Assembly (NCBI GenBank): GCA_038245195.1
Contig: JBBRSU010000001.1
Location: 128,121-192,120 of the forward strand
Source of the DNA: Candidatus Saccharimonadales bacterium
GTDB lineage: Bacteria > Patescibacteriota > Saccharimonadia > Saccharimonadales > UBA10212
Direction of reading: 5' to 3'
DNA: 64,000 nt
Position numbers and translations under genes: made by a program. This document shows positions 1 through 39,797 of the stretch, one piece after another. The notes beneath the pieces are model-generated. The model saw only the letters and a program-made list of their open reading frames with translations. It had not been told where the DNA came from and did no database searches. Numbering within the stretch: the first letter of the stretch is position 1; each line of letters starts with the position of its first letter.

Positions 1-544
1 GCAACAGCCCGTGTTCCTTGTTGGCGTTTTTGTTGGTGGCATAGTCGCCGCGTCTGACGTGAATCGAGACTGAACTAGATGCCTTCACCATTTTAAGTAG
101 CTGTTTTGAATAGGATGAAATTTCTTTGGGCTCAAATTCCTCTAATAGGATTTTTCGTACATCTTTAAAATATCGTTCATTTTGCCACCAACCCACGATA
201 TAGGTGTTATCTCTGGCTCTTAGCATAATGTCATAGAAGGATTTATTCGGCTCGCCTAGTGGGCGCAACCGTTTATCAATACCCAAGCGTCTAGTAATCT
301 TATAGAACAATCCAGCATGGTAGCCTTGCGGTAACATTCTGCCTAAATCGTGCTCATTGGCTGTCTTTGCTGAAATCTTATAACAACTAAGTTCGTAATG
401 TCTTGGAGTATCAATAGAAGCCATGTTGTCATACGTCGATACATCAAGCAAAAGAGTAGTCTGAATTTTGTCGGCAAGTCTTTTGGCGGTCGCATATTGA
501 AACATTTGGTTGCCCAACCCGCCCATCAGTTTAACTATAATCAT
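1..544 (-). CDS. alpha-1,2-fucosyltransferase (GT11 family), C-terminal part cut by window edge
   Basis: I translated the minus strand from the ATG at 544-542. It reads MIIVKLMGGLGNQMFQYATAKRLAD..., and later ...VSIHVRRGDY (codons around 70-41). GGLGNQMFQYA and HxRRGDY are the GT11 signature motifs. The start overlaps the stop of the upstream gene as ATGA. It is absent from the ORF track because it runs off the window. Confidence 0.8.
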   Translation of the reverse strand, partial: MIIVKLMGGLGNQMFQYATAKRLADKIQTTLLLDVSTYDNMASIDTPRHYELSCYKISAKTANEHDLGRMLPQGYHAGLFYKITRRLGIDKRLRPLGEPNKSFYDIMLRARDNTYIVGWWQNERYFKDVRKILLEEFEPKEISSYSKQLLKMVKASSSVSIHVRRGDYATNKNANKEHGLL

Positions 545-5285: not shown

Positions 5286-6223
5286 TACGAGCGATTTACC
5301 TTATACCATTGGATAGTTTCGCGTAAGCCTTCCTCGAAAGTTGTACTAGATAAAAAGCCAAACTCTTTATTTGCCCGTGAAACATCGAGTTTTCGGCGTG
5401 GCTGGCCGTTAGGCTTAGAAGTATCCCACTTTATTTTGCCCTGAAAGCCGGTTTCTTTAACGATAATATTAACAAGATCCTTGATGTTTATCTCTGAGGA
5501 CGAACCTAAATTTACTGGGTCGCTTTTATCGTATTTTTCAGCGGCCAAGATAATCCCGTCAGCTGCATCCTCAACGTACAAAAACTCTCGGGACGCACTG
5601 CCGTCTCCCCAGACTTCTATTGCGCCTGCGTTATTATCGACAGCGTCCACGGATTTTTTTATAAGAGCAGGGATAACGTGCGAACTTTGCGGGTCAAAGT
5701 TATCGCCCGGTCCATATAGGTTAACGGGTAATAAGAAAATAGAATCAAAGCCGTATTCTTGGCGATAGCCCTGGCTCTGTACCAGCATCATTTTTTTGGC
5801 CAAGCCGTAAGGGGCGTTTGTTTCCTCTGGGTATCCATTCCATAAATCAACTTCTTTAAAGGGAACGGGAGTATATTTTGGGTAAGCACAAACAGTTCCC
5901 AGAGCTACAAACTTTGGGATTTTAAACTGCCGGGCTTGCTCCATCAGCTCAACGCCCATAATCAAATTTTCATAAAAGAATTTACCGGGGTGTTCGCGGT
6001 TAGCCCCAATCCCGCCAACTACAGCCGCCAAGTGAATGACCATGTCGCTGGGATTGTCGCTGTACATTTTTTTAATTTGGTCACGATCAGTAAGATCATA
6101 TTCGGCATGAGTTGGAGAAATTACAGTTGCTCCTAGATCTTTTAGTTTTTTGCAAACATAGGTTCCTAGAAAGCCGCTACCGCCAGTAACCAATATCTTC
6201 TTTTTATTCCAAAAAGTACTCAT
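5285..6223 (-). CDS. fcl: GDP-L-fucose synthase (GDP-4-keto-6-deoxy-D-mannose 3,5-epimerase/4-reductase)
   Basis: 312 aa. It has the Rossmann motif [11 protein letters not shown], plus [20 protein letters not shown] (YxxxK) and [10 protein letters not shown], all typical of Fcl/WcaG. Confidence 0.85.
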
Positions 6224-6252
6224 ACTTAACTAGTATAACAGATTAGATAAGA

Positions 6253-8361
6253 CTAAAACTGGCCGCTAGTAAGCGTGTTCCAAATGGCATTATTGCTATT
6301 GTAGATGACTAAATTCCCATCATTTTGCACCACAAGCGAAGACGAACCTTTGCCGGCCGTCCCCGATGACCAGTAAGCCTTAGCCTGTGAGTCATAGAGC
6401 ACCAAGTTCCCATCACTCTGCATGACCGCACTTGTTACGGGTTTATTGGATGTGCCGCTGGACCATAATGCCCGTTTTATAGAGTAGAGCACCAAGTTCC
6501 CATCATTTTGCATATATAATCTATACCGCCCGTCAGCGGATGTAATTGACTGGCCCATATTCAATAACTGATTAGCCCCCAAACTAAAACCACCTGATGT
6601 ATCAAAATGAACCATCGTGTAGTAATTTAAGCCAACATCATTCATCCAAGCTATGCCTTCAGCAACAGGCGTAAAATGCTCCTGGTAGATACCGACTGTG
6701 GCAGGTGCTTGGTACCAAAATTCGAAGGTAGCAGTCTGGCCTGGTGCCACGGATGCCTCTTTCATTCCAGCAGGGCGGCCACAGCCAAGCCAAGACGGAG
6801 TGTCGGACTTATCACAAAAAACACTAGTCCGGTCGAGTGGGCTGCTTGTGCCGACATGAACTGGATTGGCTCCTGAGTTACTCCAGGTGACATTACCCGT
6901 ATTTTTAGCTGTGAATCCGACGAATGTCTTCTGACTAGGTGCTAAATTACTAAGACTGACAGCGGTTGATTTAGTTTGGTCTGTGTAAGCGTATTGGCTT
7001 TGCAGTGACCAGGTGTAGATAGGAGGTTTTACTACGGCGTGAAAGTACATTCCAGGGTCATTCATCCATTTTAGACCCTCGGCCACCAAACTAAAATGTT
7101 CATTGTATGTATTTGCTTGCATTGGTGCTTGGTACCAAAATTCGAAGGTAGCAGTCTGGCCTGGTGCCACGGATGGCTCTTTCATCCCCGCAGGGCGCCC
7201 ACAGCCAAGCCAAGATGGAGTGTCTGTTGTGTCGCAAAAAAGGCTATTTCGATCTTGAGATGAAGTTGTGCCAACATCTACAGGGTTATTCCCCGAATTA
7301 GACCATGTAGTGTCGCCTGTATTTAAGGCTTTAAAACCAACATAAACCTTCTGGCCAACCACTAAATTATTCAAATCTACCGGGGTAGTCTTGGCTTGAT
7401 CCGTATAAGCGTATTGACTGTTTGGCGACCAAGTGAACTTGTCGTAGTAAGAGCCGAACCAACTTTGAAATAGATTGTCGAAACTACTGTTACCAGAAAA
7501 GTGGGGTGTATAAACATAGAAAGCAGCGGTTGCACCATTATCGATATGTACACTACCGCCATCTATAGTTGTATATCCATCATAGAAAACTGTCGTTGAG
7601 TCGGTAGGGCAACGTTTGAAATTGCCTTGAGTCATAAAACCGCTGTAACAGGCATCAGAAGCGGGGATGTTCCAGGCTGATGGGCAGGTATTATTATCAT
7701 CACAGTTATTCCAGCTTCCTTTAATAACCGCCCAGCCAGTATCGCCTTCAGCCTTGTGCCTCGAAAAAGTCAACAACCACGCGGCATGAATAATTTGTTC
7801 TGAAAAGCCGGCTTTTGGCCCACTATTCACGCACGAGCCGGTAATAGAATTGACTGGATTGCCGTTTATATAATAAAGCGGTGTGACTAATCCACCACTC
7901 GGATAACCATAATCATGAGTATTAGTACCAGAGTCCGTGCATCCGTAGCCTACCGCAGATGCGTAACGCCAACTAGCACACCCAGAAGTGCCAGTTACTA
8001 AATTTTCTTCTTTTTCTAGGGTTGCTAGTAAGACTTGAGGGTTAATGCTATAGGCTTGAGAGGTATCGTATACTATCTGGCCAGCGGTAACGGGAGTGCT
8101 ACTATATAGAAATTGCGACGGGTTGGGGCTGTAACCTGTGGGGTCAGGGGCAGTAAATCCATTATTACTGCTAATACAGCTACTCGGAAAGTTAGCATTC
8201 AACCAGTTATCAATTTGAACCGCGGACATAGAATTAGCACGGTCAAATACTCCGTCGTCAATAACATTATTGCCATTAAAAGCGAAAGCCGGATGTGCTT
8301 TAAAGAGCAATGTGCCGGACACCATTAAAACAAAAATAATAAGATATCTTCTAATCATCAC
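6253..8361 (-). CDS. secreted multidomain protein: signal peptide, Cys-rich lysozyme-like(?) N-domain, 2 x ~140-aa Ig-like repeats, C-terminal bulb-type (B-)lectin domain
   Basis: The N-terminus MMIRRYLIIFVLMVSGTLLFKAHPAFA is a signal peptide. INPQVLLATLEKEENL resembles a muramidase/transglycosylase catalytic-Glu region. There are two tandem repeats (TWSxxSQYAYTDQ...SWLGCGRPAGMKExSVAPGQTATFEFWYQAP...). The C-terminus carries three QxDxNxVxY motifs: MQNDGNLVLY, MQSDGNLVLY and VQNDGNLVIY. Confidence 0.75.
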   Translation of the reverse strand: MMIRRYLIIFVLMVSGTLLFKAHPAFAFNGNNVIDDGVFDRANSMSAVQIDNWLNANFPSSCISSNNGFTAPDPTGYSPNPSQFLYSSTPVTAGQIVYDTSQAYSINPQVLLATLEKEENLVTGTSGCASWRYASAVGYGCTDSGTNTHDYGYPSGGLVTPLYYINGNPVNSITGSCVNSGPKAGFSEQIIHAAWLLTFSRHKAEGDTGWAVIKGSWNNCDDNNTCPSAWNIPASDACYSGFMTQGNFKRCPTDSTTVFYDGYTTIDGGSVHIDNGATAAFYVYTPHFSGNSSFDNLFQSWFGSYYDKFTWSPNSQYAYTDQAKTTPVDLNNLVVGQKVYVGFKALNTGDTTWSNSGNNPVDVGTTSSQDRNSLFCDTTDTPSWLGCGRPAGMKEPSVAPGQTATFEFWYQAPMQANTYNEHFSLVAEGLKWMNDPGMYFHAVVKPPIYTWSLQSQYAYTDQTKSTAVSLSNLAPSQKTFVGFTAKNTGNVTWSNSGANPVHVGTSSPLDRTSVFCDKSDTPSWLGCGRPAGMKEASVAPGQTATFEFWYQAPATVGIYQEHFTPVAEGIAWMNDVGLNYYTMVHFDTSGGFSLGANQLLNMGQSITSADGRYRLYMQNDGNLVLYSIKRALWSSGTSNKPVTSAVMQSDGNLVLYDSQAKAYWSSGTAGKGSSSLVVQNDGNLVIYNSNNAIWNTLTSGQF
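6704..7175 (-). repeat. intragenic tandem duplication (420-nt period) with an identical 52-nt core
   Basis: ggtgcttggtaccaaaattcgaaggtagcagtctggcctggtgccacggatg occurs at 6704-6755 and again at 7124-7175, exactly 420 nt apart. The flanking sequence is related but diverged. Confidence 0.9.
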
Positions 8362-14424: not shown

Positions 14425-15870
14425 CTATCGGGCTCCGCCACCACGGAGCACTACACGCACGGTCTTTGCCAGAATCATCAAATCCATCCAAATGCTCCAG
14501 TTCTGGACGTAAAACAAATCGAGCTTACGCCGCTCTGCAAAGCTAATATCTCGCCTGCCAGACACTTGAGCCAGACCCGTTAAGCCAGACTTCACTGCCA
14601 GGATCAGATCTTTCTTGTCGTATTCATTCAGCTCCGATATTTGCAGAGCGCGAGGTCCGACAAAGCTTATGTCTCCCTTAAAGATATTTATAAGCTGAGG
14701 CAGCTCATCTAAGCTTGATCGACGAAGCACTCGACCAATTCCACTAATCCGAGGGTCGTTAGGAATTTGGTCACCAGCTTGTCTATATTTTTCAATTAAA
14801 TCCCGTCGGCCCATTTTTTCAAAAGCTTCCTCTGGTGTCAGACCACTATATTTTTTTAAGTGTGTTCGGAATTTATATATCTTGGCAGTGCTACCAAAGC
14901 GGGTCAAACGAGGATCTTTATAAACGATCGGTCCTCGAAAATCGAAAATCTTCACCATTAATCCAATAAGTATCATCATTGGAACCCCCGGTATAAGCAT
15001 TGCTAGGCTTAGTATTAAATCACTGATTCTTTTTACTATTCGGCCCCAGCCGATTAGGGCAGTCTGGTGGACCGCAATAACTGGTACTGATGAACGGAAC
15101 AGCTCCACGGCAATATTGCCGACAAATAGTTCACTATTGCCCGGTACGAAGCGGTAGGAGATATGGTTAGTTTGAGTATAATCTAGAATTTCGTTATTAC
15201 GGCTGGCGGCGGCAAATAGTTCGGTTTGAACTACTCCGTGAATATCCGCCGCTTTTAAATGCTTAACAGCATCCTCGAATGAACCAAAGACCCTCAAATG
15301 AGGATACCGCTTCACAGCTTGGTCTTTATCGGCGACAACGCCAACAATCCGATAGCCAGAAACTTTATAATCATCTAGAAAATCTATTAGCTCAACTGTA
15401 ATCCGAGTGTTACCAACCAGCAGAAGATTGGTTATTCCGACATCGTAACTATACAGCCAAGCCCGTGTGCCGCGCGCGAAGTTACGAAACGAGGCTAGGA
15501 AAATAAAAGCCAAGCTAAATCCATAAATTGGAACCAGTTTAGAAGGAAATACTATCCGATTGGAAAAGTAGGCATAGCTAGTTACAAACAGCAGGCCGAT
15601 AAATGAGCCAATTAGTAAGCGGCCTAGCTCTACAAACCGCTTTTCCTGGATACTTGTGCCATACAACCCCATCAGAGCGAAGAAAGTTATCCAAAACGGT
15701 AAAAGCAATAAAAAAATACTTAAGTAAGTCGCTGCATGAAGTGGATGAGCTACAGGTGCAGCGCTTAAGTGGGTTCTTAAGATGTAAGCCGCCACAAAAG
15801 CCGCCACTAGAGCCAAAGCATCGCCCACCACCAGGATAAATCCATAAATGAGCGAAGCGTTACTTTTCAT
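14425..15870 (-). CDS. polyprenyl-phosphate sugar-phosphotransferase (WbaP/exopolysaccharide priming transferase family)
   Basis: An N-terminal polytopic region is followed by the C-terminal bacterial sugar transferase domain: DELPQLINIFKGDISFVGPRAL and DLFYVQNWSIWMDLMIL. Confidence 0.85.
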   Translation of the reverse strand: MKSNASLIYGFILVVGDALALVAAFVAAYILRTHLSAAPVAHPLHAATYLSIFLLLLPFWITFFALMGLYGTSIQEKRFVELGRLLIGSFIGLLFVTSYAYFSNRIVFPSKLVPIYGFSLAFIFLASFRNFARGTRAWLYSYDVGITNLLLVGNTRITVELIDFLDDYKVSGYRIVGVVADKDQAVKRYPHLRVFGSFEDAVKHLKAADIHGVVQTELFAAASRNNEILDYTQTNHISYRFVPGNSELFVGNIAVELFRSSVPVIAVHQTALIGWGRIVKRISDLILSLAMLIPGVPMMILIGLMVKIFDFRGPIVYKDPRLTRFGSTAKIYKFRTHLKKYSGLTPEEAFEKMGRRDLIEKYRQAGDQIPNDPRISGIGRVLRRSSLDELPQLINIFKGDISFVGPRALQISELNEYDKKDLILAVKSGLTGLAQVSGRRDISFAERRKLDLFYVQNWSIWMDLMILAKTVRVVLRGGGAR

Positions 15871-18211: not shown

Positions 18212-18451
18212 TTAGCCTTTTAGGAATAAGAAATAGATAACAACTAATACAACTACAGCTACAGCCACATACACCCACATCTTTTTCTTACTACCGGCTG
18301 TGGCCGGTTGATTGGGGGGAGTTGGAGAGACTGGAGCTGGATCTGCCGGGGCAGGTGAGGCCAATGGTGGCATAGGGCCTGGTACTGGCGGTTCAGATGT
18401 GGTTGGCGGAGCCGGTGGGGTTTGGGTTGGCGGTTCAGCGGTTGGATTCAT
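18212..18451 (-). CDS. small proline-rich protein with C-terminal TM anchor
   Basis: 79 aa. The sequence PTQTPPAPPTTSEPPVPGPMPP... is followed by WVYVAVAVVVLVVIYFLFL. The call is uncertain because the low-complexity sequence also opens an antisense ORF. Confidence 0.4.
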   Translation of the reverse strand: MNPTAEPPTQTPPAPPTTSEPPVPGPMPPLASPAPADPAPVSPTPPNQPATAGSKKKMWVYVAVAVVVLVVIYFLFLKG

Positions 18452-19361: not shown

Positions 19362-19389
19362 AAGTAGGGCCCCTTTCGGAGCCCTACTT
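19362..19389 (-). terminator. GC-rich hairpin downstream of the GC-rich gene 19406-20347
   Basis: aagtagggcccctttcggagccctactt pairs as aagtagggc/gccctactt, plus an inner cc/gg pairing around a tttc loop. On the minus strand it is followed by TTTATT. Confidence 0.55.
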
Positions 19390-19405
19390 GTCATGCGTCG
19401 CGGTT

Positions 19406-20347
19406 TTATCCGCGGTCGATCAGCCCAGCAGCGGCAGAGGGATGGTTCGCAATGAACCGCTCCCAGCTGGCGCCGCGGGCACTCAGCCAGCCGGCGAACT
19501 CATCAGTACTTCGGAAAGTACGGCCGTCCCAGAGCAAGCCCTGGGCTTTGACCGTTCCCCTAGCCTGTGTGAGTCGATGGCTGTGAGAATTGTTGGGCGA
19601 TGTAGCTGTATTGCTTATGGCGATTGTTGCACTTGAGCACTGGTTATCGACGACGTTTGGGTCTGAAACCGTCGTTGTACCTACGCACGCTCGATTGGTT
19701 AGTGTGCCGGGCGAGTCAGCCCGAGCAACAATGGACACCATCACATGTTGTCCGGCACTCAGAGTGCTGAACGAACAGCTGATGGTTTGGTTGCCTACCC
19801 CTCCAACGACGGAACAGGCTCCCTGGGTAGTCGTGACCTGCTCGGCACTCAATAGCTCCATCTGCGGTGGCAGAGAATCATTGAGGCTCACATCGGTCGC
19901 ATTACACTCAGGACTCCCACTATTGAAGACATCCAGAGTGTAGTTGACCATCGAACCCAGACCGTAGCTGGAGGCTCCGGCGGTGTTGATGACGCCAATG
20001 TCTGCCGTCGGAGTCACTTCGCAGTAACTCGGCGGTCGAGCAGTTGGCGGTACTACAACCGGCGTCGTAGTAATCGTTGTAGCCGTCGGTGGTAGTTGGG
20101 CATCAGGGTCATTGTTGTCATCCGTGACACTTCCGGGGGTATCCGGAGGTGTCGGCGGGTCAGCGTTGGCCCCACTGTCGCAGGCATCACCGGAACAGAC
20201 GATGGTTGGATTGTCCGGGATGTCGCTACCGCAAACGGTTATTCCTTGGACCGTTATGCAACCCTTGCTGTTCGCCACAGCGTTGTCCGCCATGAACCCC
20301 AGGATACCAAGGGCACTTACTGTCACTAGAAGCAGAAACTTTTCCAT
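19406..20347 (-). CDS. secreted DUF11/CARDB-like repeat-domain protein (GC-rich, probably foreign)
   Basis: It has the signal peptide MEKFLLLVTVSALGILGFMADNAVA, a P/T-rich linker, then MVNYTLDVFNSGSPECNATDVSLNDSLPPQMELL...TISCSFSTLSAGQHVMVSIVARA. That last stretch fits the conserved-repeat (DUF11) pattern YTLxVxNxGxxxAxxVxLxDxLP. A hand count of line 20101-20160 gives 36/60 GC. Confidence 0.6.
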   Translation of the reverse strand: MEKFLLLVTVSALGILGFMADNAVANSKGCITVQGITVCGSDIPDNPTIVCSGDACDSGANADPPTPPDTPGSVTDDNNDPDAQLPPTATTITTTPVVVPPTARPPSYCEVTPTADIGVINTAGASSYGLGSMVNYTLDVFNSGSPECNATDVSLNDSLPPQMELLSAEQVTTTQGACSVVGGVGNQTISCSFSTLSAGQHVMVSIVARADSPGTLTNRACVGTTTVSDPNVVDNQCSSATIAISNTATSPNNSHSHRLTQARGTVKAQGLLWDGRTFRSTDEFAGWLSARGASWERFIANHPSAAAGLIDRG

Positions 20348-20355
20348 GACCGCCT

Positions 20356-21135
20356 CTAGATAATCGACGGGCTGTAGTCCCAGAAAATCACCGTGCCGGC
20401 GCTGTTTACCTTAACTAGCACCCACGGGTAAATCGTCTGGCTGTTGACTCCCGGAACGGGAGAAGTGACGGTCATAGGCAGCTTGATCTTAGCGAAAAAA
20501 CAGCCATGAGACCGCCAATGGCCGTGAACGGTGCATCCGTAGACCCCAGTCTTAAAGTACCTCGAGTCCGAGAGATCCGCCATGTTGTACTTAATGAAGG
20601 CTCTCTCATCGGTTACTGATGCGCTGGCTAGTGGCCGCGAGTCGAACGTCAAGTAGCCGTTGTGGTTCGTGCTCCAGTCCACCTTCAAGTGCAGGCGGTA
20701 GAGCGTGAAGCCACCGAGCGGGTAGTGCCCACGGTGCCAGACGTCGACTGACTCGTGGCCGGGTTCCGAGGCGTAGCCCATGTTCTGGTCTACAGCTTGG
20801 TTCCAGCTGACCCCGCCGCTGAAGCCTTCATCCTTGTTGGAATTGACGAACCCCGTAGAGATCGCCAAGAACCCAGCCAGGATTAGGACTAGTAGCTGGA
20901 CACGCCAGGCGTTTTTCCAACCGGTAAGGATCAGTCCCAGGGCTGCCAGAGTCAGAGCAACCAGGCCGAAGCCGAAGCTGCCCACCATGCCCGCCCAGTC
21001 CCCCACCTGCAAGAGCAGGTAGGTTCCCAGGGACATCGCGGCAATGATGGTGAGAACCGTAGCGATGGTCCACACCAAGATTGCAAGTGTTGCTTTAAGA
21101 ACAGATGGCATTTTGCTTCCCTTCGTCTTTGACAA
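20356..21135 (-). CDS. GC-rich polytopic membrane protein with C-terminal extracytoplasmic beta-rich domain, unknown function
   Basis: 259-aa ORF starting at TTG 21135. The more likely start is the ATG at 21111 (MPSVLK), which is preceded by GAAGGGAAG. It has four N-terminal TM segments. It lies 9 nt from the DUF11 gene on the same strand. Confidence 0.55.
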   Translation of the reverse strand: MSKTKGSKMPSVLKATLAILVWTIATVLTIIAAMSLGTYLLLQVGDWAGMVGSFGFGLVALTLAALGLILTGWKNAWRVQLLVLILAGFLAISTGFVNSNKDEGFSGGVSWNQAVDQNMGYASEPGHESVDVWHRGHYPLGGFTLYRLHLKVDWSTNHNGYLTFDSRPLASASVTDERAFIKYNMADLSDSRYFKTGVYGCTVHGHWRSHGCFFAKIKLPMTVTSPVPGVNSQTIYPWVLVKVNSAGTVIFWDYSPSII

Positions 21136-21300
21136 TAGGAAGCCGCAGATGCCGCAGACTACTACAAGTTACACGTAATTAGCATTTGAACTATCATCAC
21201 CTCTTTTCAAGGATCGACTTGCATGACAAGTTAAGCAAACTGTACTACTTTTATTTAATTATGTCAATAGTAGCTAAGAGGCTAATGCCTATGAATAATC

Positions 21301-21333
21301 AAAAAAAAGGCCAGGGACTCCCAAGCCTTTTTT
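21301..21333. terminator. bidirectional intrinsic terminator-like hairpin (A8 - stem-loop - T6)
   Basis: The sequence is aaaaaaaa ggccagggactcccaagcc tttttt. The stem is GGCx(x)GGG/CCC(x)xGCC, flanked by an A-run and a T-run. Confidence 0.5.
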
Positions 21334-21349
21334 ATATTGAAAACCTTAC

Positions 21350-21442
21350 CTACCAGAAGAATTGGTTATCTTCATTCAGAACATCGCGAATATGTCTTCG
21401 CTCTTTACGGTATTCAATAAATTTCTCTATTACGCCGGTCAT
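21350..21442 (-). CDS. candidate 30-aa small protein (MTGVIEKFIEYRKERRHIRDVLNEDNQFFW)
   Basis: From my own translation. AAGGGGA lies 4 nt upstream of the ATG (21442-21440). The TAG stop at 21352-21350 is followed by the hairpin/T-run at 21333-21301. It is below the ORF-track size cutoff. Confidence 0.25.
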   Translation of the reverse strand: MTGVIEKFIEYRKERRHIRDVLNEDNQFFW

Positions 21443-21737
21443 AAAATCCCCTTAAACTTACTCATCTAGATTAACTGGGTTAATTATTTAAATCCGTTAA
21501 GAATCTCACTAATAAGCCTTGCTCATCGGGATTCAAGAGCTAATAGGTGGTGGACTATAATATAAAACTTAAGCTAATAATAGAAAGCGGGTAATCATTG
21601 AAAAGTCCTAAATCTAACGGGCAGGCAACGCTTAGTAATATGTGCGGGGTACGTAGTAGGCTAAATTACCACTCGGCATCAACCTGCTTAAGTAGGCAAA
21701 TACCCAATAACTCCGATTAACAAGATTTTCAAACTTT

Positions 21738-23073: not shown

Positions 23074-23955
23074 ATGAAATATCACAATATATATATTATC
23101 TATAACCCAAATAGTACCGGTCCTAGCGATGATATGGCTAAGGAGCTTAAGACTCAGCTGCAAACGGCTTATCCCAAAGCAACCATAAAGCTGCTGGCGA
23201 CAAAGTATGCCGGGCATGCTGAAAAACTAGCTTACAAAACAGCTCTACAGTCAAACCAGCCACTTATTATCTCGGTCAGCGGGGACGGCGGATACAACGA
23301 GGTAATTAACGGTGCCATGACGGCAATAACCAAAGGAGCTGACCCGATTTGTACCGTCTTGCCGGCAGGAAACGCCAATGACCATAGCCGCACAGTCCAT
23401 GAGCACCCACTGGTTGAGCTTATAAAGCAGGCTAAAATTACTCCTATAGATTTACTTAAAGCGGAAGTGTCGGGAAGTTCTAAAAATTACACACGCTACG
23501 CTCACTCTTATATTGGCTTGGGTCTAACTCCGGTGGTAGCAGTCGAGCTTAATAAAACTAGCCTTAACACCCTAAAAGAATTGTGGATTGTCATAAGAAC
23601 TTTTTATAAATTTCGTCCATTCAAACTGCTTATAAATAATAAAGTCAGTAAGCTCGACAGCATTATCTTTGCAAACATTGGCCAGATGGCAAAGATTCTA
23701 ACCCTGACTAAAACAGCCAAGCTAAATGATGGACGTTTTGAAGTTATAACCTTGTACCACTCTCGGAAAATCAAATTAGTTAAGATTTTTTCAAAAGCCG
23801 TCTTTAGCGGACTAAAACCTAAAAAATATCAGTCTTTTGAGTTCACTGTGATTAAGAAACTTCCGGCACAGTTTGACGGAGAGATCATGTATATGAATGC
23901 CGGTTCCAAAGTTAAGGTTACGGCCGAGAAGAAGGTATTAAAATCTATAATTTAG
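23074..23955 (+). CDS. diacylglycerol-kinase-catalytic-domain lipid kinase (YegS/BmrU family)
   Basis: IYNPNSTG...LIISVSGDGGYNEVINGAM...LPAGNANDH are the DAGK_cat motifs. Confidence 0.75.
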   Translation: MKYHNIYIIYNPNSTGPSDDMAKELKTQLQTAYPKATIKLLATKYAGHAEKLAYKTALQSNQPLIISVSGDGGYNEVINGAMTAITKGADPICTVLPAGNANDHSRTVHEHPLVELIKQAKITPIDLLKAEVSGSSKNYTRYAHSYIGLGLTPVVAVELNKTSLNTLKELWIVIRTFYKFRPFKLLINNKVSKLDSIIFANIGQMAKILTLTKTAKLNDGRFEVITLYHSRKIKLVKIFSKAVFSGLKPKKYQSFEFTVIKKLPAQFDGEIMYMNAGSKVKVTAEKKVLKSII

Positions 23956-25918: not shown

Positions 25919-27262
25919 TTGACCACATCATTGGTCAACGACAAGGTTATCGTCCGCCCTGCGGCAGCCGATGACTTCGAGTGGGTGGCCGATCTCATGG
26001 TGCGGGCTCTGAGCCCGTTCTACGGAGGTGACCACCGTGCGCACGCACAGAGGATCTTCGACACGCACATGGAAGGAGGCATCGATCACGTTGGTCACTT
26101 CTCGGCTGGACAGTACATGTTCATCGCGGAGCAGAGTGGCCAGCCGCTCGGCCTTATCCACGTCGTCGAGAAGAAGCAAGAGACGGTGAAGATCAGTCCA
26201 CTGATCGTCAGCCCCGACTACCGGGGCAAGCTGGGAATCGGAAGCGTGCTACTCAAGCACGCCGAAGACTTCGCCCACGAGCTTGGTGCTCGTCAGCTGT
26301 ACTGCACAGTCGCTTCACCTAACCAGAAGGCGCTGGACTTCTTCCTCCGGAAGGGGTTCCGCATCACTGGCACAGCGAAGGATCACTACAAGCAGGGCAT
26401 CAATGAGCACATGCTCTACAAGGAGCTGGGCGACGAGCCTGGCTACGACGCCCCCAACGTGTCGGTGATTCCGTTCAATGAGGAGAAGCACGGCAACGCC
26501 GCGCGACACCTCATCCTCTCGCAGATGAGTGACATCTTCCGCGGTGTAGACGACGACTGGGTTGACGCCCTGTTCGCCGGCTACAAGCGAAGGACAAGCT
26601 CTGATGTCAACAGCAAGTACAAGATCGTCTTCGTCGCCGAGAGCGGTGGCGAGGTTGTCGGCGTTGCTGGGGCCACCCCCAAGAAGGGTGAACCCATCAA
26701 GTTGATGCCACTCGTGGCTTCTTCTGAGGTGGCATTTGAAGCGCTCGTCATCGACCTCCAGGGGCTTCTGATGGACCACGGCCACAAGCTGTATGCCCAC
26801 CTGGTTCCGGAACCATGGCAGGTCGCATCTCTCCAGAGTCACGGCTGGTCGCTTGAAGGTGTGTTCCCGGGTGGGTACGCACCGAACAGCGTCGTTCAGC
26901 AGTGGGGCTTCAACTTCAACAAGGAAGGAACGACTGTGAGGAAGCTACGTATCAAGTACCCGTACTTCCGCGACATCATGTCCGGGAAGAAGTCGCTCGA
27001 GGTACGAGTTGGGTACGACAACATCAAGAAGTTTCGCGAGGGCGAGCTCCTGCAGCTCGAAACCAGCCGAACGTCGGGCGTCGTCCGGATCAAGTCGATC
27101 CGGATCTACGACAACTTCGCTGATATGCTGGCGATCGAGCCGTGGCGCGAGATTGTGCCGCAGGTCGACAGCCAGGAGGCGGCAGTGAAACTCCTGCGGG
27201 AGATCTACCCCGTCAACAAGGAGCGTCTCGGCGTACACGTCATCGAGGTCGAGAAGCAGTAG
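25919..27262 (+). CDS. GC-rich fusion protein: two GNAT acetyltransferase-like domains plus C-terminal ASCH domain
   Basis: The TTG start follows GGAGGTGTACC. GNAT region: IVSPDYRGKLGIGSVLLKHAEDFAHELGARQLYCTV...ALDFFLRKGFRITG. A second GNAT-like half spans ~190-330. The C-terminus LRIKYPYFRDIMSGKKSLEVRVGYDNIKKFREGELLQL...LGVHVIEVE is ASCH-like. Line 26401-26460 is 37/60 GC by hand count. Confidence 0.65.
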   Translation: MTTSLVNDKVIVRPAAADDFEWVADLMVRALSPFYGGDHRAHAQRIFDTHMEGGIDHVGHFSAGQYMFIAEQSGQPLGLIHVVEKKQETVKISPLIVSPDYRGKLGIGSVLLKHAEDFAHELGARQLYCTVASPNQKALDFFLRKGFRITGTAKDHYKQGINEHMLYKELGDEPGYDAPNVSVIPFNEEKHGNAARHLILSQMSDIFRGVDDDWVDALFAGYKRRTSSDVNSKYKIVFVAESGGEVVGVAGATPKKGEPIKLMPLVASSEVAFEALVIDLQGLLMDHGHKLYAHLVPEPWQVASLQSHGWSLEGVFPGGYAPNSVVQQWGFNFNKEGTTVRKLRIKYPYFRDIMSGKKSLEVRVGYDNIKKFREGELLQLETSRTSGVVRIKSIRIYDNFADMLAIEPWREIVPQVDSQEAAVKLLREIYPVNKERLGVHVIEVEKQ

Positions 27263-27619: not shown

Positions 27620-27694
27620 TGGCTCCGGAGGCCGGATTCGAACCGGCGACCTGGGGATTAACAGTCCCTCGCTCTACCGCTGAGCTACTCCGGA
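27620..27694 (-). tRNA. tRNA-Asn (anticodon GTT), CCA encoded
   Basis: The reverse complement is TCCGGAG TA GCTC AGCGGTA GAGC G AGGGA CTGTTAA TCCCC AGGTC GCCGG TTCGAAT CCGGC CTCCGGA G CCA. It forms a full cloverleaf with a 7-bp acceptor stem, a T33-GTT-A37 anticodon loop and the TTCGAAT T-loop. Confidence 0.92.
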
Positions 27695-28828: not shown

Positions 28829-29000
28829 AATTTAATGAGAAAAGTACTACAAAAATGTGAAGCAGACCGTGGTATTATTAAATTCTTAACAAATGGGTTG
28901 CTGGAAGTTAGTGAAAATCTAACACTGTGCCGCAACGGTGATGCGCTTTTAAGCGATAAGTCCGATACAGCTTTTTAGTAAATTTGCTCCCGAGCAGGAG

Positions 29001-29025
29001 AAGTACTTAACTTATCAAGTATTTT
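29001..29025. repeat. degenerate copy of the TACTTAAC/GTTAAGTA palindrome family
   Basis: aagtacttaacttatcaagtatttt has an intact left arm and 2 changes in the right arm. It sits in the divergent intergenic region 28809-29056. Confidence 0.6.
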
Positions 29026-29056: not shown

Positions 29057-30475
29057 TTGGAAACAAGCGAAAAATTAATTGAACGAACTAGGCCCAGGCT
29101 AGCCTGTGAAATCTATGATCAGCCGACAATGGAACAGCAAGCTTGGCTATTAATTAATTCGCGTGACCAAATCGAGCACGACCGCTGGGAACAAGAACCA
29201 AGTATAAATGCTAGAACCGCATTATTCGAGGCCCTTACAGCCAAAGGCCATCTATCCAGAATTGAATTTAATGAACCTCCAGAGTTAACCAACCAACGAA
29301 CTCTTCAAAGATTGATAAATGGTTGGGCTGATAGTCTGCCAGACTGGGAAAAACAACGCCGGTTTTCAGAAATTGTCGAGGAACTAACGATACATGAGGT
29401 CTATGAAGATATTAAAGCCGGTCTGTTGCCTGAAGATACCATAATTATCACTATCTCCAATTTTCCGCAGGGCGTTTCGGAGCAAGAAGCCACCCAAAAC
29501 GGTTATGGGGTACTGAATCAAAAAGGGATGACCCGAACAACCGCCTTTGAAGATGAGTTTAGAGTATTGGAGCAAGCGTCTAGGAGCAATAGTAACGACG
29601 GCAGTGCCGAGCGTTTCTTCTCAGCTCAAGGTCTTGTAGCTGAGCAGGGGGCTAATCAGCTATTGGCTAATCAGATTATAGCTACCAAACGTGATTTCCC
29701 GGACGGTGTAGTAAGCATCCAACAAATTTTAGACAGCTACTCTGGACCAAATGTTATTTACGGGGAAAATCGCCATCAAATGGATTTTAATGTTCCGGAA
29801 TATTATGAGCTTAGAGATATATCCGCCCAACGAGAGTTACAAGCCGAAAGTTTTATAAAAATACTAGAGAACTATGAGCGGCAGTTAAATATTAGCTACA
29901 ATGCTGGGCATATAAACTATGACCAGAAACTTTCAGCCTTATATATAAAACGCAAAGAACTGGTAGCTCAGATATGTTTGCTTTGTCCTGATTATGCCAA
30001 GGATGCTATGGGTGAACGATCGGCTGAATATATTAAGCAAGCGTCATATGCCATGGCCGCCGGCAATGATTCGGCCGGTATGCAGCACATGGAAATGGCA
30101 GTATCAGTTGCCGACTCTCGGGCCGGAGCGGTTTGCGGTGGTAGTGGGCTAGAATCGAATGACATTAACAATAATTCCAACTCCGATGTTAAGCTCATCT
30201 ATCTTGAAGCCAAAGAAGAGCGCAAAAACTGGAAATGGGCTCGCGGAGTTTGTGTAGTTAAAGAGTGTCCTAGCCGCCCGGTAAAAACCGAAGTTGGTCC
30301 GTGTAGCGTCTGCCGAAATTGCCAAAATATATTCGATAAAGGCGATACTCCCAAGCAAATTTATAAAGTCTTAGGTTTCTTGGATATTTTGTTTGAATCG
30401 CTGGCCGAATTCAATCGAAAATACGATGCCGAGCAAGCTGAAAAGAAAGCTAATAAGTCGAAGTTAGCTGCGTAA
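29057..30475 (+). CDS. hypothetical protein (472 aa) with C-terminal Cys-rich zinc-ribbon-like motif
   Basis: Long ORF. The start is uncertain: TTG at 29057 has no SD. The C-terminus reads CVVKECPSRPVKTEVGPCSVCRNC. No family recognised. Confidence 0.5.
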   Translation: METSEKLIERTRPRLACEIYDQPTMEQQAWLLINSRDQIEHDRWEQEPSINARTALFEALTAKGHLSRIEFNEPPELTNQRTLQRLINGWADSLPDWEKQRRFSEIVEELTIHEVYEDIKAGLLPEDTIIITISNFPQGVSEQEATQNGYGVLNQKGMTRTTAFEDEFRVLEQASRSNSNDGSAERFFSAQGLVAEQGANQLLANQIIATKRDFPDGVVSIQQILDSYSGPNVIYGENRHQMDFNVPEYYELRDISAQRELQAESFIKILENYERQLNISYNAGHINYDQKLSALYIKRKELVAQICLLCPDYAKDAMGERSAEYIKQASYAMAAGNDSAGMQHMEMAVSVADSRAGAVCGGSGLESNDINNNSNSDVKLIYLEAKEERKNWKWARGVCVVKECPSRPVKTEVGPCSVCRNCQNIFDKGDTPKQIYKVLGFLDILFESLAEFNRKYDAEQAEKKANKSKLAA

Positions 30476-38675: not shown

Positions 38676-38694
38676 CTCGTTGAACGGTTATGCA
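38676..38694. repeat. left arm of 19-bp imperfect inverted repeat flanking the desaturase gene
   Basis: ctcgttga acggt tatgca. Its reverse complement, tgcata accgt tcaacgag, matches 39818-39836 (tgcata ggttg tcaacgag) at 6/6 plus 8/8 outer positions. Confidence 0.6.
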
Positions 38695-39797
38695 TTAGCC
38701 GGGCTCGCTGCAGGGTTCTGGCCCATGTTCTTTAGGTGGCGGTAGTGGGCTTTGACAGCACTCCAAAGAGTCGGCTGGCAGTTGTAGGGCAGACCGTGAC
38801 GCAAACAGGCCTGTTTAACAATGGCCGCGATGGCCGGATAGTGCACGTGTGCTGTGTGCGGAAACAGATGGTGTTCCAGCTGGTAGTTGAGCCCACCCAT
38901 GAACCAAGTAATTGCCCGGTTGCCCGGACAAAAATCACTGGTCGCCAGAACCTGATGGACCGCCCAGGAGCTAGGTAGCTTGCCATTGCTGTCGGTGTCC
39001 TGATCTGACGTGAACTGTGCCTCGTCAGTGCAGTGCGCCAGTTGGAAGGTGGCCGCCAGTATGAAACTGAACAGCCAGCTAAGACTCAGATAAGCAATTG
39101 CGAATCCCAGTGCACCGTGCCACGTCAAGTGGAGCAGCAGTGGTATCACAAAGGCCCAACCGATGAAGATCAGCTTGCCGATGGCGAACGCACCGGCTTC
39201 GAAAGCACTGGGCTTTTTCAGCTCGAAGCGGGTAATCCGACCACGAATCATCACGCTGATGTCGCCAAAGCTCTGCCACTTCAGCGTCAGTAGGCCGTAG
39301 CCAAACCACAGGTACAGGTGTTGCCACTTATACCAGGGCTTCCATTCTTGGGTAGACGTCATGCGGGCGAACGGTGGCTGGTCGATGTCTTCGTCCAGGC
39401 CGTCGAAGTTTGGATAGGTATGGTGAGCCAGGTTGTGTTTGACTCGCCACGTGTAGCTACTTCCTCCCAGGACTTCCAACACATATCCAGCCTGACGGTT
39501 GACCCGCCGGCTGCGGCTGAAACCACCGTGGTTGCCATCGTGCATGATGCAAAAGGCGGCGGCCAGAGTGCCGAGTACGAAGGGTACACCGTACAGGATG
39601 ATCTGCCACCAGCTGTTGCCCATAATTACCAGGGCCAAGTACCAGCTGATTGTCCAAGCAACGATGAACGCTGCTTTGCGATGCAAGCGACGGAAACCCG
39701 CTTGGACGACATCAGCCTTGAGGTAGGAGTTCACCTCCACTTGAAGTTCTTTCCAAAAATCCTCTTTGACTCTGAAGGTAATTTTGGCTACCGGCAT
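38688..39797 (-). CDS. membrane fatty-acid desaturase (three His-box, front-end/acyl-lipid desaturase-like), GC-rich
   Basis: The His boxes are HDGNHG, HNLAHH and QLEHHLFP. It has 4 TM segments, and the RBS AGGGGGTGA lies before the ATG at 39797. Line 39481-39540 is 38/60 GC by hand count. Many shadow ORFs appear in all frames. Confidence 0.8.
   Translation of the reverse strand: MPVAKITFRVKEDFWKELQVEVNSYLKADVVQAGFRRLHRKAAFIVAWTISWYLALVIMGNSWWQIILYGVPFVLGTLAAAFCIMHDGNHGGFSRSRRVNRQAGYVLEVLGGSSYTWRVKHNLAHHTYPNFDGLDEDIDQPPFARMTSTQEWKPWYKWQHLYLWFGYGLLTLKWQSFGDISVMIRGRITRFELKKPSAFEAGAFAIGKLIFIGWAFVIPLLLHLTWHGALGFAIAYLSLSWLFSFILAATFQLAHCTDEAQFTSDQDTDSNGKLPSSWAVHQVLATSDFCPGNRAITWFMGGLNYQLEHHLFPHTAHVHYPAIAAIVKQACLRHGLPYNCQPTLWSAVKAHYRHLKNMGQNPAASPANA

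Follow-up and report, generated by a model that had tools for sequence, protein, structure and literature searches.

A rare GC-rich cassette encoding a membrane protein and a secreted DUF11 protein in a Saccharimonadales genome

We analyzed a stretch of 64,000 nucleotides (nt), hereafter the window, of contig JBBRSU010000001.1 from a Candidatus Saccharimonadales bacterium of soil origin, with a focus on a GC-rich patch at positions 19362 to 21158. The patch was found to be a single transcription unit on the minus strand, consisting of a promoter, a leader, 2 genes here called gene A and gene B, and a terminator. Gene A encodes a protein with N-terminal membrane helices and gene B encodes a secreted protein with a DUF11 domain. 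We tentatively interpret the patch as a self-contained and very rare accessory surface-display cassette that circulates laterally in the Saccharimonadales gene pool and is not of actinobacterial origin. The cassette family, the fold of the gene A protein and the leader appear to be undescribed; in kind, the cassette is an accessory surface-protein islet.

A GC-rich transcription unit in a Saccharibacteria backbone

The segment from 19395 to 21140 contained 56.8% GC compared with 44.2% across the remaining window, and was the most GC-rich 1.75-kb stretch of all 64 kb (window mean 44.6%, standard deviation 3.2). The shift was not merely an effect of amino acid (aa) composition, since the GC content at third codon positions (GC3) was also raised, to 0.73 in gene A and 0.59 in gene B, from a median of 0.43 over 62 open reading frames (ORFs) in the window. 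In gene B (GC 0.569, GC3 0.589) the second codon positions were also GC-rich (0.554), because Pro, Thr, Ala, and Gly are abundant in the protein. The tetranucleotide profile of the patch, normalized for base composition, correlated with that of the backbone at r = 0.26, compared with 0.70 ± 0.11 (minimum 0.43) for backbone chunks of equal size. The patch is thus compositionally foreign by all 3 measures. An earlier note on this DNA, made without database searches, had described an abrupt shift in composition, which was confirmed, and its GC counts (36/60 in the line 20101 to 20160 and 27/60 in the line 23101 to 23160) were exact. The long shadow ORFs that it placed only within the patch are indeed present there, but 2 other GC-rich genes in the window have them as well. 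The patch is one of 3 islets with deviating GC3 in the window, and is an outlier without being unique.

That the backbone represents a Saccharibacteria (Saccharimonadales) genome, in accordance with the epibiont considered in the note, was borne out by the sugar transferase encoded at 14425 to 15870, which was 71% identical to its homolog in the Saccharimonadales metagenome-assembled genome CRAIB_MAG7 (locus L010) and 35% to 59% identical to those of about 70 further Saccharibacteria and Patescibacteria genomes. The surrounding genes encode envelope functions (GT4, Wzy_C, GtrA, PAP2, DUF998), and the neighbors of the patch are genes for PAP2, DUF5670, DUF998, and a LexA-like protein. An assembly chimera was judged unlikely, as the same junctions were found in a Logan assembly (L001, 100% identity over 6432 nt, possibly from the same sample), and as GC-rich cassettes embedded in flanks of lower GC content were seen again in other runs and samples.

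The earlier description of a discrete module of 2 co-directional genes, bounded on one side by a terminator, was upheld. The hairpin at that end is a real GC-rich terminator, located 17 nt beyond the stop codon of gene B, and GC-rich hairpins with T-runs were likewise found 3' of gene B in the related loci L002 and L006. On the other side, the tandem GCCGCAGA-T-GCCGCAGA at 21142 to 21158 was recognized as 2 copies of CUGCGGC read on the opposite strand. The gap at 21136 to 21737 is AT-rich (36.9% GC), in agreement with the note, but it is not empty, since it holds the promoter, the leader, a bidirectional terminator, a 30-aa ORF and a candidate small RNA. The coordinates of all features are listed in Table 1.

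Table 1. Features of the cassette and of the region immediately upstream, in window coordinates unless residues are given
Feature	Position	Strand	Details
Conserved 30-aa ORF MTGVIEKFIEYRKERRHIRDVLNEDNQFFW	21350..21442	-	Six-frame hidden Markov model (HMM) search; 38% GC, backbone composition
Bidirectional terminator hairpin	21303..21333	both	Inverted repeat with A and T runs, between the 30-aa ORF and the promoter
Sigma-70-type promoter	21239..21267	-	TTGACA-17 nt-TACAGT; 10/12 consensus matches
5' leader	21112..21232	-	~120 nt
Leader 5' hairpin	~21217-21231	-	
Orphan Shine-Dalgarno (SD)-like sequence	21196-21203	-	GAGGUGAU
Two CUGCGGC heptamers	21151-21157 and 21142-21148	-	
Anti-SD	21138-21143	-	GCUUCC
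SD	21115-21121	-	GGGAAGC
Gene A	20356..21111	-	251 aa; ATG at 21111
Gene B	19406..20347	-	313 aa; starts 9 nt past the end of gene A
Gene B signal peptide			Sec-type; cleavage probably after AVA at ~residue 25
Gene B N-module			Four Cys, GCITVQGITVCGSDIPD...C...C
Gene B stalk	residues ~60-105		Pro/Thr/Asp-rich, low complexity
Gene B DUF11/CLIPPER domain	residues 116-239		6 Cys, no Lys
Gene B C-tail			~55 aa, conserved, GLLWDGRTFRSTDEFAGWLSARGASWERFIANHP
Cassette intrinsic terminator	19362..19389	-	12-nt arms, 92% complementary, 4-nt loop GAAA, then TTTATT

The signal peptide, the Pro/Thr linker and the DUF11 domain attributed to the gene B protein by the earlier note were all identified, and the cargo is, largely as it had described, envelope or surface hardware, with a Sec-secreted DUF11 protein encoded next to a membrane protein. 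The match to PF01345 scored 62.4 bits (cut-off 24.6, E = 6.4e-17) and aligned the domain to positions 1 to 112 of the 114 in the HMM, while the match to TIGR01451 scored 24.6 bits against a threshold of 24. A weak profile match to an integrin alpha Ig-like domain (E = 1.5e-4) lends indirect support to the CnaA-like beta-sandwich fold that would be expected of the family. DUF11 has been renamed CLIPPER after an intramolecular Lys-Asn isopeptide bond, and within the family disulfides are common and some members do not have the isopeptide bond (PMC12617251). Residues 105 to 250 of the gene B protein contain no lysine, the homologs contain 0 to 4 lysines in this region, and no alignment column has a conserved lysine. 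Since it contains no lysine but 6 cysteines, the domain must belong to the isopeptide-free and, probably, disulfide-stabilized members of the family. The full protein contains 10 cysteines and no membrane helix, and ends in ...FIANHPSAAAGLIDRG, with neither an LPXTG motif nor a hydrophobic segment, so that it does not have the features of a sortase-anchored protein.

Like the CLIPPER domains of fibrillar adhesins (Protein Sci 2025, PMC12617251; structure 9IFR), the gene B domain matches the HMM, is part of a secreted protein and is rich in cysteine. Unlike them, it is present as one domain in a protein of only 313 residues, with no tandem-repeat stalk and no giant adhesin, and without lysine it cannot form the Lys-Asn isopeptide bond that defines the family. 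The gene B protein further differs in having no recognizable anchor (LPXTG, OmpA-like or membrane helix) and in that its gene always has a partner upstream, encoding a membrane protein whose fold is unknown.

The gene A protein had been described as a polytopic membrane protein, which holds for its 3 N-terminal helices, but more than half of the protein is an extracytoplasmic beta domain. In an AlphaFold2 model based on an alignment of 22 sequences (overall predicted local distance difference test score, pLDDT, 84), the helices span residues 3 to 36, 38 to 63, and 65 to 95 with a pLDDT of about 85 to 92, and residues 96 to 251 are confidently predicted to form a soluble all-beta domain of about 155 residues. 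With only 7 sequences in the alignment, the pLDDT of this ectodomain was about 30. An extracytoplasmic location is indicated for the beta domain because a plain signal peptide substitutes for the 3 helices in some of the homologs. The ectodomain contains the motifs VDVWHRGHYPxGGF and YGCxVxGxWRxHGCF, and the invariant or nearly invariant residues of the family alignment are only Gly, Pro, Tyr, and Cys, including 2 nearly invariant cysteines. An enzymatic role was considered unlikely, as these are not residues of a catalytic type. The protein had no match in Pfam, NCBIfam, PHROG, or PADLOC, and no match to the PDB by sequence, and comparison of its model with PDB and BFVD by Foldseek was negative too (best E 0.08 and 0.02, respectively, with TM-scores of at most 0.2). 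The longest form of the ORF starts at a TTG codon at 21135, but the homologs and the gene callers all use the ATG codon.

A conserved leader and a GC-rich family

The upstream DNA was compared for 12 cellular cassettes, including the remote copies and a paralogous cassette in L002, of which 11 reach into the promoter. A promoter of the form TTGACA-N17-TAnnnY followed by a 5' hairpin was present in all 11 leaders that extend far enough, and a purine-rich G(A/G)GG(U/G)G(A/G/C)U sequence was located 83 to 146 nt before the start codon in 10 of these 11. The heptamer CUGCGGC was found in one to 3 copies in all 12 leaders and was the sole invariant block. The promoter and leader, which are AT-rich and specific to the cassette, were more strongly conserved than the proteins, and their combined motif was confined to cassettes across the 1.56 Mb examined. 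The leader had no match in Rfam 15, either for the window (E ≤ 10) or for 8 related loci (E ≤ 1).

In the cassette leaders, the CUGCGGC block is followed by a predicted hairpin in which the SD region of gene A is paired. In a partition-function fold of the window leader, the SD sequence had an unpaired probability of 0.09, and the region from -16 to -5 was mostly paired in 11 of 11 leaders, with a mean unpaired probability of 0.21 compared with 0.45 for 45 control genes in the window (Mann-Whitney p = 1.4e-4). The inner helix of this hairpin varies in sequence among the loci, yet it pairs in each individual fold. The cassette leaders thereby resemble SD-sequestering leaders such as RNA thermometers and the expression platforms of riboswitches, in that the ribosome-binding site (RBS) is paired in all 11 predicted ensembles, but differ from them in belonging to no Rfam family. 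To our knowledge, the invariant heptamer, often present in 2 to 3 copies, has no counterpart in such leaders.

The GAGGUGAU sequence of the window leader is a perfect complement of the 3' end of the 16S rRNA and no conserved ORF follows it. A leader peptide was considered an unlikely explanation, since neither a start codon nor an ORF is conserved at this place. By analogy, the orphan SD resembles the STAB-SD stabilizers of mRNA (Agaisse and Lereclus 1996, as cited in PMC7509114), which are likewise SD-like sequences in the 5' untranslated region far from the start codon, as in 10 of the 11 cassette leaders. A widespread riboswitch was also considered and rejected: when metagenomes were scanned for TCTGCGGCTTCY...ARGGAAGCAA, 14 stretches were returned, only a single one being a genuine cassette and the others chance matches in coding DNA.

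The cassette was found to be very rare. Only 7 close homologs of gene A, and 5 of gene B together with one distant DUF11 protein, were identified among 5.8 billion proteins, and when 1.84 billion cluster representatives were searched exhaustively with a HMMER profile, only 17 relatives of gene A were recovered. The close homologs were all from metagenome contigs, and on each contig of sufficient length gene B came after gene A, as in the window. Cassette-bearing contigs came from SRR19962014, JGI 3300003321, ERZ27265316, ERZ27264792, SRR16608034, SRR28624403, SRR21686406, and SRR28644779. The pairing was retained in all 7 close loci and also in remote loci at 23% to 35% identity (L107, L109, L106, and the second pair in L002). 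In L107, L109, and L106, gene A was only 23% to 30% identical to the gene in the window and was in each case followed by a secreted protein with a Cys-loop N-module, which in L107 and L109 also carries a DUF11 domain.

No cassette was found in a scan of one genome per species covering 185,579 species, Actinobacteria included, with 2 peptide patterns. The A/B pair was absent from 80 Saccharibacteria species-representative loci that are syntenic with the window, no relative of gene A was found by tblastn in plasmids or in 50,697 GenBank phages, and scans of IMG/VR with the A family, the B family and a remote gene A relative (P0014, see below) were also negative. Every close homolog with flanking sequence was located in DNA of lower GC content, and the flanks were Saccharibacteria-like where this could be tested, as judged from PAP2/DUF5670 synteny in L007, from a 30-aa ORF in common and from a weak similarity of other flank genes to Saccharibacteria loci.

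The sites of the cassettes differed among L002, L003, L007, L107, and L111, and the neighboring genes varied between PAP2 in 2 orientations, tRNA-Asn, tRNA-Arg, Ku, and RimK. L003 was collinear with the window over 1075 nt (71% DNA identity), in an alignment that begins at the 30-aa ORF, takes in the terminator, the promoter and the leader, and stops where gene A ends. In L007, the genes for PAP2 (69% identical) and DUF5670 were located beside the pair in the opposite arrangement to that in the window. Adjacency to tRNA genes was seen only in L002, where the pair was located about 230 nt past tRNA-Asn, and in L111, where it followed 2 tRNA-Arg genes. One genome can hold several cassettes, as the soil contig L002 contains a second, paralogous pair (A'/B') at 6040 to 7888 on the plus strand, encoding proteins of 272 and 349 residues at 60% GC. 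Its promoter and its leader (5859 to 6039) are of the same type, with GAGGTGATG, then GCTGCGGC...GCTGCGGG and finally the SD hairpin, and B' has kept a C-tail of the GLLW...HP type.

It was also noted that in L008 (5099 to 5696) and L009, the same leader is followed, in the place of gene A, by genes for a 152-aa beta protein with a signal peptide and a 42-aa membrane protein with a single helix, and then by a homolog of gene B. The 152-aa protein scored below significance against the HMM of the A family, and the 2 genes may represent a split or replaced gene A.

All copies of the cassette were GC-rich (57% to 67% GC), down to 23% to 30% identity and including the paralogous pair in L002. The GC content of the cassette compared with that of its flanks was 57% and 44% in the window, 60% and 46% in L002, 65% and 48% in L007, 63% and 51% in L006, 63% and about 50% in L008, 62% and 43% in L107, and 63% and 52% in L109. 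Outside the window, GC3 ranged from 0.66 to 0.88. The GC anomaly was upheld, and is a property of the whole cassette family rather than of a single insertion. Four-fold-degenerate third positions at conserved residues were 21% to 53% identical between copies, compared with 28% to 41% expected from base usage, and the synonymous sites are therefore near saturation, while GC3 remains high. The cassette has diverged about as much as the backbone genes linked to it: between the window and L007, PAP2 was 69% and gene A 56% identical, and between the window and L003 the 30-aa ORF was 77% and gene A 74% identical.

The Saccharibacteria loci that we retrieved (L010 to L081) varied widely in composition, from 35% to 55.7% GC. 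The highest value was obtained for L010, the closest named relative, in which GC3 was 0.70 to 0.76, matching the cassette, whereas the window has 44.5% GC and a GC3 of 0.43. Together with the 71% amino acid identity of the sugar transferases, this indicates a large compositional shift within the clade. In L003, which carries the closest copy (74% identity), GC3 was 0.68 in the flanks and 0.79 and 0.66 in the cassette, which is thus nearly compositionally native.

Function and origin of the cassette

The organization of the cassette suggests how it may work as a 2-part surface-display or adhesion device. A single sigma-70-type promoter would drive the long leader, the default fold of which is predicted to bury the RBS of gene A by pairing of GCUUCC with GGAAGC in the hairpin directly 3' of CUGCGGC. 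Expression would then probably be held off at the post-transcriptional level until a trans-acting factor or a certain condition opens the hairpin, and the orphan SD may stabilize the mRNA in the manner of a STAB-SD. The gene A protein would insert into the membrane by its 3 helices and expose its beta domain, putatively disulfide-bonded, as a membrane-anchored docking platform. The gene B protein would be exported by the Sec pathway and dock on this ectodomain through its Cys-rich N-module, with the Pro/Thr stalk holding the CLIPPER beta-sandwich and the small C-terminal domain away from the cell. The N-module is the probable contact with the gene A protein, because no part of gene B other than the Cys-loop N-module and the stalk stays with gene A in every context, a phage-like contig (L104) included. 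As in non-covalent 2-component surface display, an exposed membrane protein is co-transcribed with an anchorless, stalked secreted protein; with respect to described pairs of anchors and adhesins the likeness would be one of function only, as we found no relationship in sequence or fold to described anchors.

With regard to origin, the family is tiny, ancient and always GC-rich, with cellular copies that carry the same promoter and leader at different chromosomal sites. Lateral circulation within Saccharimonadales, some members of which have about 56% GC and a GC3 of 0.70 to 0.76, is favored by the foreign composition, the variable sites, the absence from species representatives, the other GC-rich islets in the window, the match in GC3 to L010, the near-native composition in L003 and the remote pair on the phage-like contig, where it is compositionally at home, and phages may contribute to the spread. 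The cassette shares with horizontally acquired islets the sharp boundaries in GC, GC3, and tetranucleotide profile, its own promoter and terminator, a patchy distribution at variable sites and, in some relatives, the adjacency to tRNA genes. It differs from them in that no integrase, transposase, or flanking repeat is present and no donor was identified, and from recently imported islets in that the atypical composition is common to all family members across saturated synonymous divergence, which is not predicted by a single recent import with later drift to the composition of the host.

Several observations weigh against the surface-display cassette in lateral circulation. GC3 showed no trend towards that of the flanks, and in L107, which has the backbone with the lowest GC content, GC3 of the cassette was 0.87. 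Near-saturated synonymous sites without such a trend fit the maintenance of a high GC content in place as well as they fit repeated import. None of the copies was located in a cellular backbone shown to be of high GC content, and several cassettes reach 62% to 67% GC, compared with at most 55.7% in the sampled Saccharibacteria loci. In the window, neither an integrase, nor flanking direct repeats, nor an adjacent tRNA gene was found at the patch, and we infer the affiliation of most related contigs from weak matches. With regard to function, the ectodomain of gene A has no match to a solved or viral structure (PDB, BFVD), so that its function rests on context, and in the 3' hairpin of the leader RNAalifold recovered an invariant outer stem and a misaligned inner stem, by which covariation was not statistically established.

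The cassette could instead be a native family with a selected composition, long resident in these genomes, in which case the GC-rich coding sequence is actively maintained and the foreign signature records no transfer; we consider this unlikely, although it deserves serious weight. Possible reasons for such maintenance are the structure or stability of the mRNA, slow translation of rare codons in a pair of secreted or membrane proteins, or biased gene conversion between paralogous cassettes. It would account for the GC-richness of every copy (GC3 0.59 to 0.88) whatever its flanks, the L002 paralogs included, for the persistence of a high GC3 at nearly saturated synonymous sites, for an AT-rich leader that is conserved more than the proteins, and for a divergence similar to that of the linked PAP2 gene and 30-aa ORF. 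However, the chromosomal positions vary and all of the species-representative genomes are without the cassette, the unrelated GC3-outlier genes in the window have no such leader and argue for a general influx of GC-rich DNA, and the copy on the phage-like contig is compositionally native without a leader. Furthermore, no known mechanism selects for a GC3 of 0.8 in one operon. A more far-reaching proposal, which we regard as rather improbable, is that a GC-rich coding sequence selected for mRNA stability or the pacing of translation is combined with an undescribed system of regulated surface display in soil Saccharibacteria, consisting of a membrane receptor A of orphan fold, a stalked, secreted and domain-swappable B that is bound by way of its Cys-loop module, and a new class of leaders in which the invariant CUGCGGC would gate the SD-occluding hairpin and the orphan SD would stabilize the transcript. 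If true, the composition of one operon would here be maintained within a reduced genome, which is rare, and this might be connected with host-cell attachment.

The phage-like contig raises the question of whether the pair originated in phages. P0014 (E = 2e-37), which of all remote relatives is nearest to gene A, is encoded on L104 (logan SRR12927082_156748). This contig of 33.9 kb has 57% GC throughout and contains small co-directional ORFs, 10 tRNA genes, HNH endonucleases, and 2 RNA ligases. An RNA ligase on this contig matched phrog_24030 (E = 3e-119) and was 44% to 52% identical to those of the jumbo phages RsoM2USA, SCTP-2, and CcrSC, and the contig thus resembles a fragment of a jumbo phage, in which the remote pair seems compositionally at home. 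The gene behind P0014 encodes a secreted protein that has the N-module with its Cys-loop and the Pro/Thr stalk in common with gene B (E = 5e-8) but not the distal domains, and the tetranucleotide profile of the window cassette was closer to that of L104 (0.44) than to its own backbone (0.26). These observations would be expected if the pair were a moron from large phages of about 57% GC, with a role in superinfection exclusion, receptor masking, or remodeling of the host surface, and if the Saccharibacteria copies were domesticated remnants. We nevertheless find this distinctly improbable, as it rests on a single contig, as neither the GenBank phages nor IMG/VR contained a relative and PHROG and PADLOC gave no match, as no other phage genes flank any of the cellular copies, and as the latter share a leader that is missing from the L104 pair. 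Since phages often capture surface genes from their hosts, the L104 pair may instead have passed from a cell to the phage.

Cultivated Saccharibacteria live on Actinobacteria, and the earlier note suggested that the patch looks like surface or adhesion hardware derived from a high-GC actinobacterial host, which we took as a recent horizontal acquisition. The foreign composition in a Saccharibacteria backbone is consistent with such a donor, as is the fact that the best or only plasmid-borne relatives of the other 2 GC-rich genes in the window are actinobacterial, at just 31% to 38% identity. DUF11/CLIPPER domains are, moreover, common in Actinomycetota (PMC12617251). However, none of the searches, which for proteins were made in databases without taxon labels, recovered an actinobacterial or other high-GC cellular homolog of either protein. 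The flanks of all close homologs are lower in GC and, as far as they could be tested, resemble Saccharibacteria, and the cassette has its own lineage-specific promoter and leader. Its 57% GC and GC3 of 0.59 to 0.73 are below those of typical soil Actinobacteria and equal to those of the related Saccharimonadales genome. The proposed donor fails because the best homologs fall within the lineage of the backbone, the outcome that the note itself had named as refuting it, and we regard this origin as close to refuted by the distribution of the homologs.

Finally, a polymorphic pair of a secreted effector with variable C-terminal domains (B) and a membrane-bound immunity or export partner (A) would agree with the tight pairing to a small membrane protein and with a constant N-module and stalk followed by different distal domains (mostly CLIPPER, but others in L104, the second L002 pair and the C-terminus in L107), but is the least credible of the explanations, since the distal domain is mostly a structural DUF11/CLIPPER beta-sandwich and not a toxin fold, searches of Pfam, NCBIfam, and PHROG detected no toxin or immunity family, and gene A is located upstream and is at least as conserved as gene B, the opposite of the usual layout with the toxin gene before the immunity gene.

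Little is known about the attachment hardware of Saccharibacteria, which are ultrasmall epibionts. As a rare accessory cassette for surface display, the putatively tightly regulated pair of a membrane protein and a stalked secreted protein in some soil lineages would be a candidate for strain-specific interactions with hosts or surfaces. For the inference of horizontal gene transfer in reduced genomes, the cassette shows that an island of deviating composition is not necessarily a recent import from an obvious partner. The leader, with its invariant CUGCGGC, occluded RBS and orphan SD, is a candidate for a new regulatory RNA in a phylum for which we know of almost no regulatory RNAs. The significance of the cassette would grow if selection on its composition, or a role of the leader as a new regulator, were demonstrated.

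Other elements of the window

The second of the 3 GC3-outlier islets, at 25919 to 27262 on the plus strand, consists of a gene for a 447-aa protein with the domains GNAT, GNAT, and ASCH (GC 58.9%, GC3 0.78), located 358 nt from a tRNA-Asn gene at 27620 to 27694 on the minus strand. In L002, it is the A/B cassette that adjoins the equivalent tRNA-Asn gene. No homolog of the GNAT-GNAT-ASCH gene was found among the 80 Saccharibacteria loci, and its only plasmid-borne relatives were from Rhodococcus (33% identity) and Streptomyces (the ASCH part only). The third islet, at 38688 to 39797 on the minus strand, encodes a fatty-acid (acyl-CoA) desaturase (GC 55%, GC3 0.67), for which the best plasmid-borne relative was from Miltoncostaea oceani (Actinomycetota), at 38% identity. 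On these weak matches, the idea of an actinobacterial host as donor may fit the desaturase and the GNAT gene better than the cassette.

A further local increase in GC, to about 55%, was seen at 18212 to 18451 on the minus strand, where the encoded protein of 79 aa is rich in Pro, Thr, and Ala and has a membrane helix at its C-terminus. This increase was accounted for by the amino acid composition alone, and the gene has been kept beside the region of the LexA-like gene in L010 and L007.

In the gap upstream of the cassette, the conserved 30-aa ORF has its own terminator, just upstream of the cassette promoter. Homologs of this ORF were located beside the cassettes in L003/L004, L008/L009, and L109/L110, and elsewhere in L007 and L002. 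The same gap contains an element of about 125 nt (21587 to 21712 on the plus strand, with TATAAT at 21557 to 21562), which was 77% to 85% identical at the DNA level to segments of 2 other cassette-bearing contigs (L007, 1636 to 1800 on the plus strand; L008, 3908 to 4062 on the minus strand). Its core, AAGUCCUAAAUCUAAC, is invariant and the element is closed by a stem, with an intrinsic terminator behind it in L007 and L008. The element had no match in Rfam and is a candidate small RNA of these Saccharibacteria.

Elsewhere in the window, an AdoCbl (cobalamin) riboswitch was identified at 28876 to 29008 on the plus strand (RF01482, 59.3 bits against a gathering threshold of 50), upstream of the ORF at 29057 to 30475.

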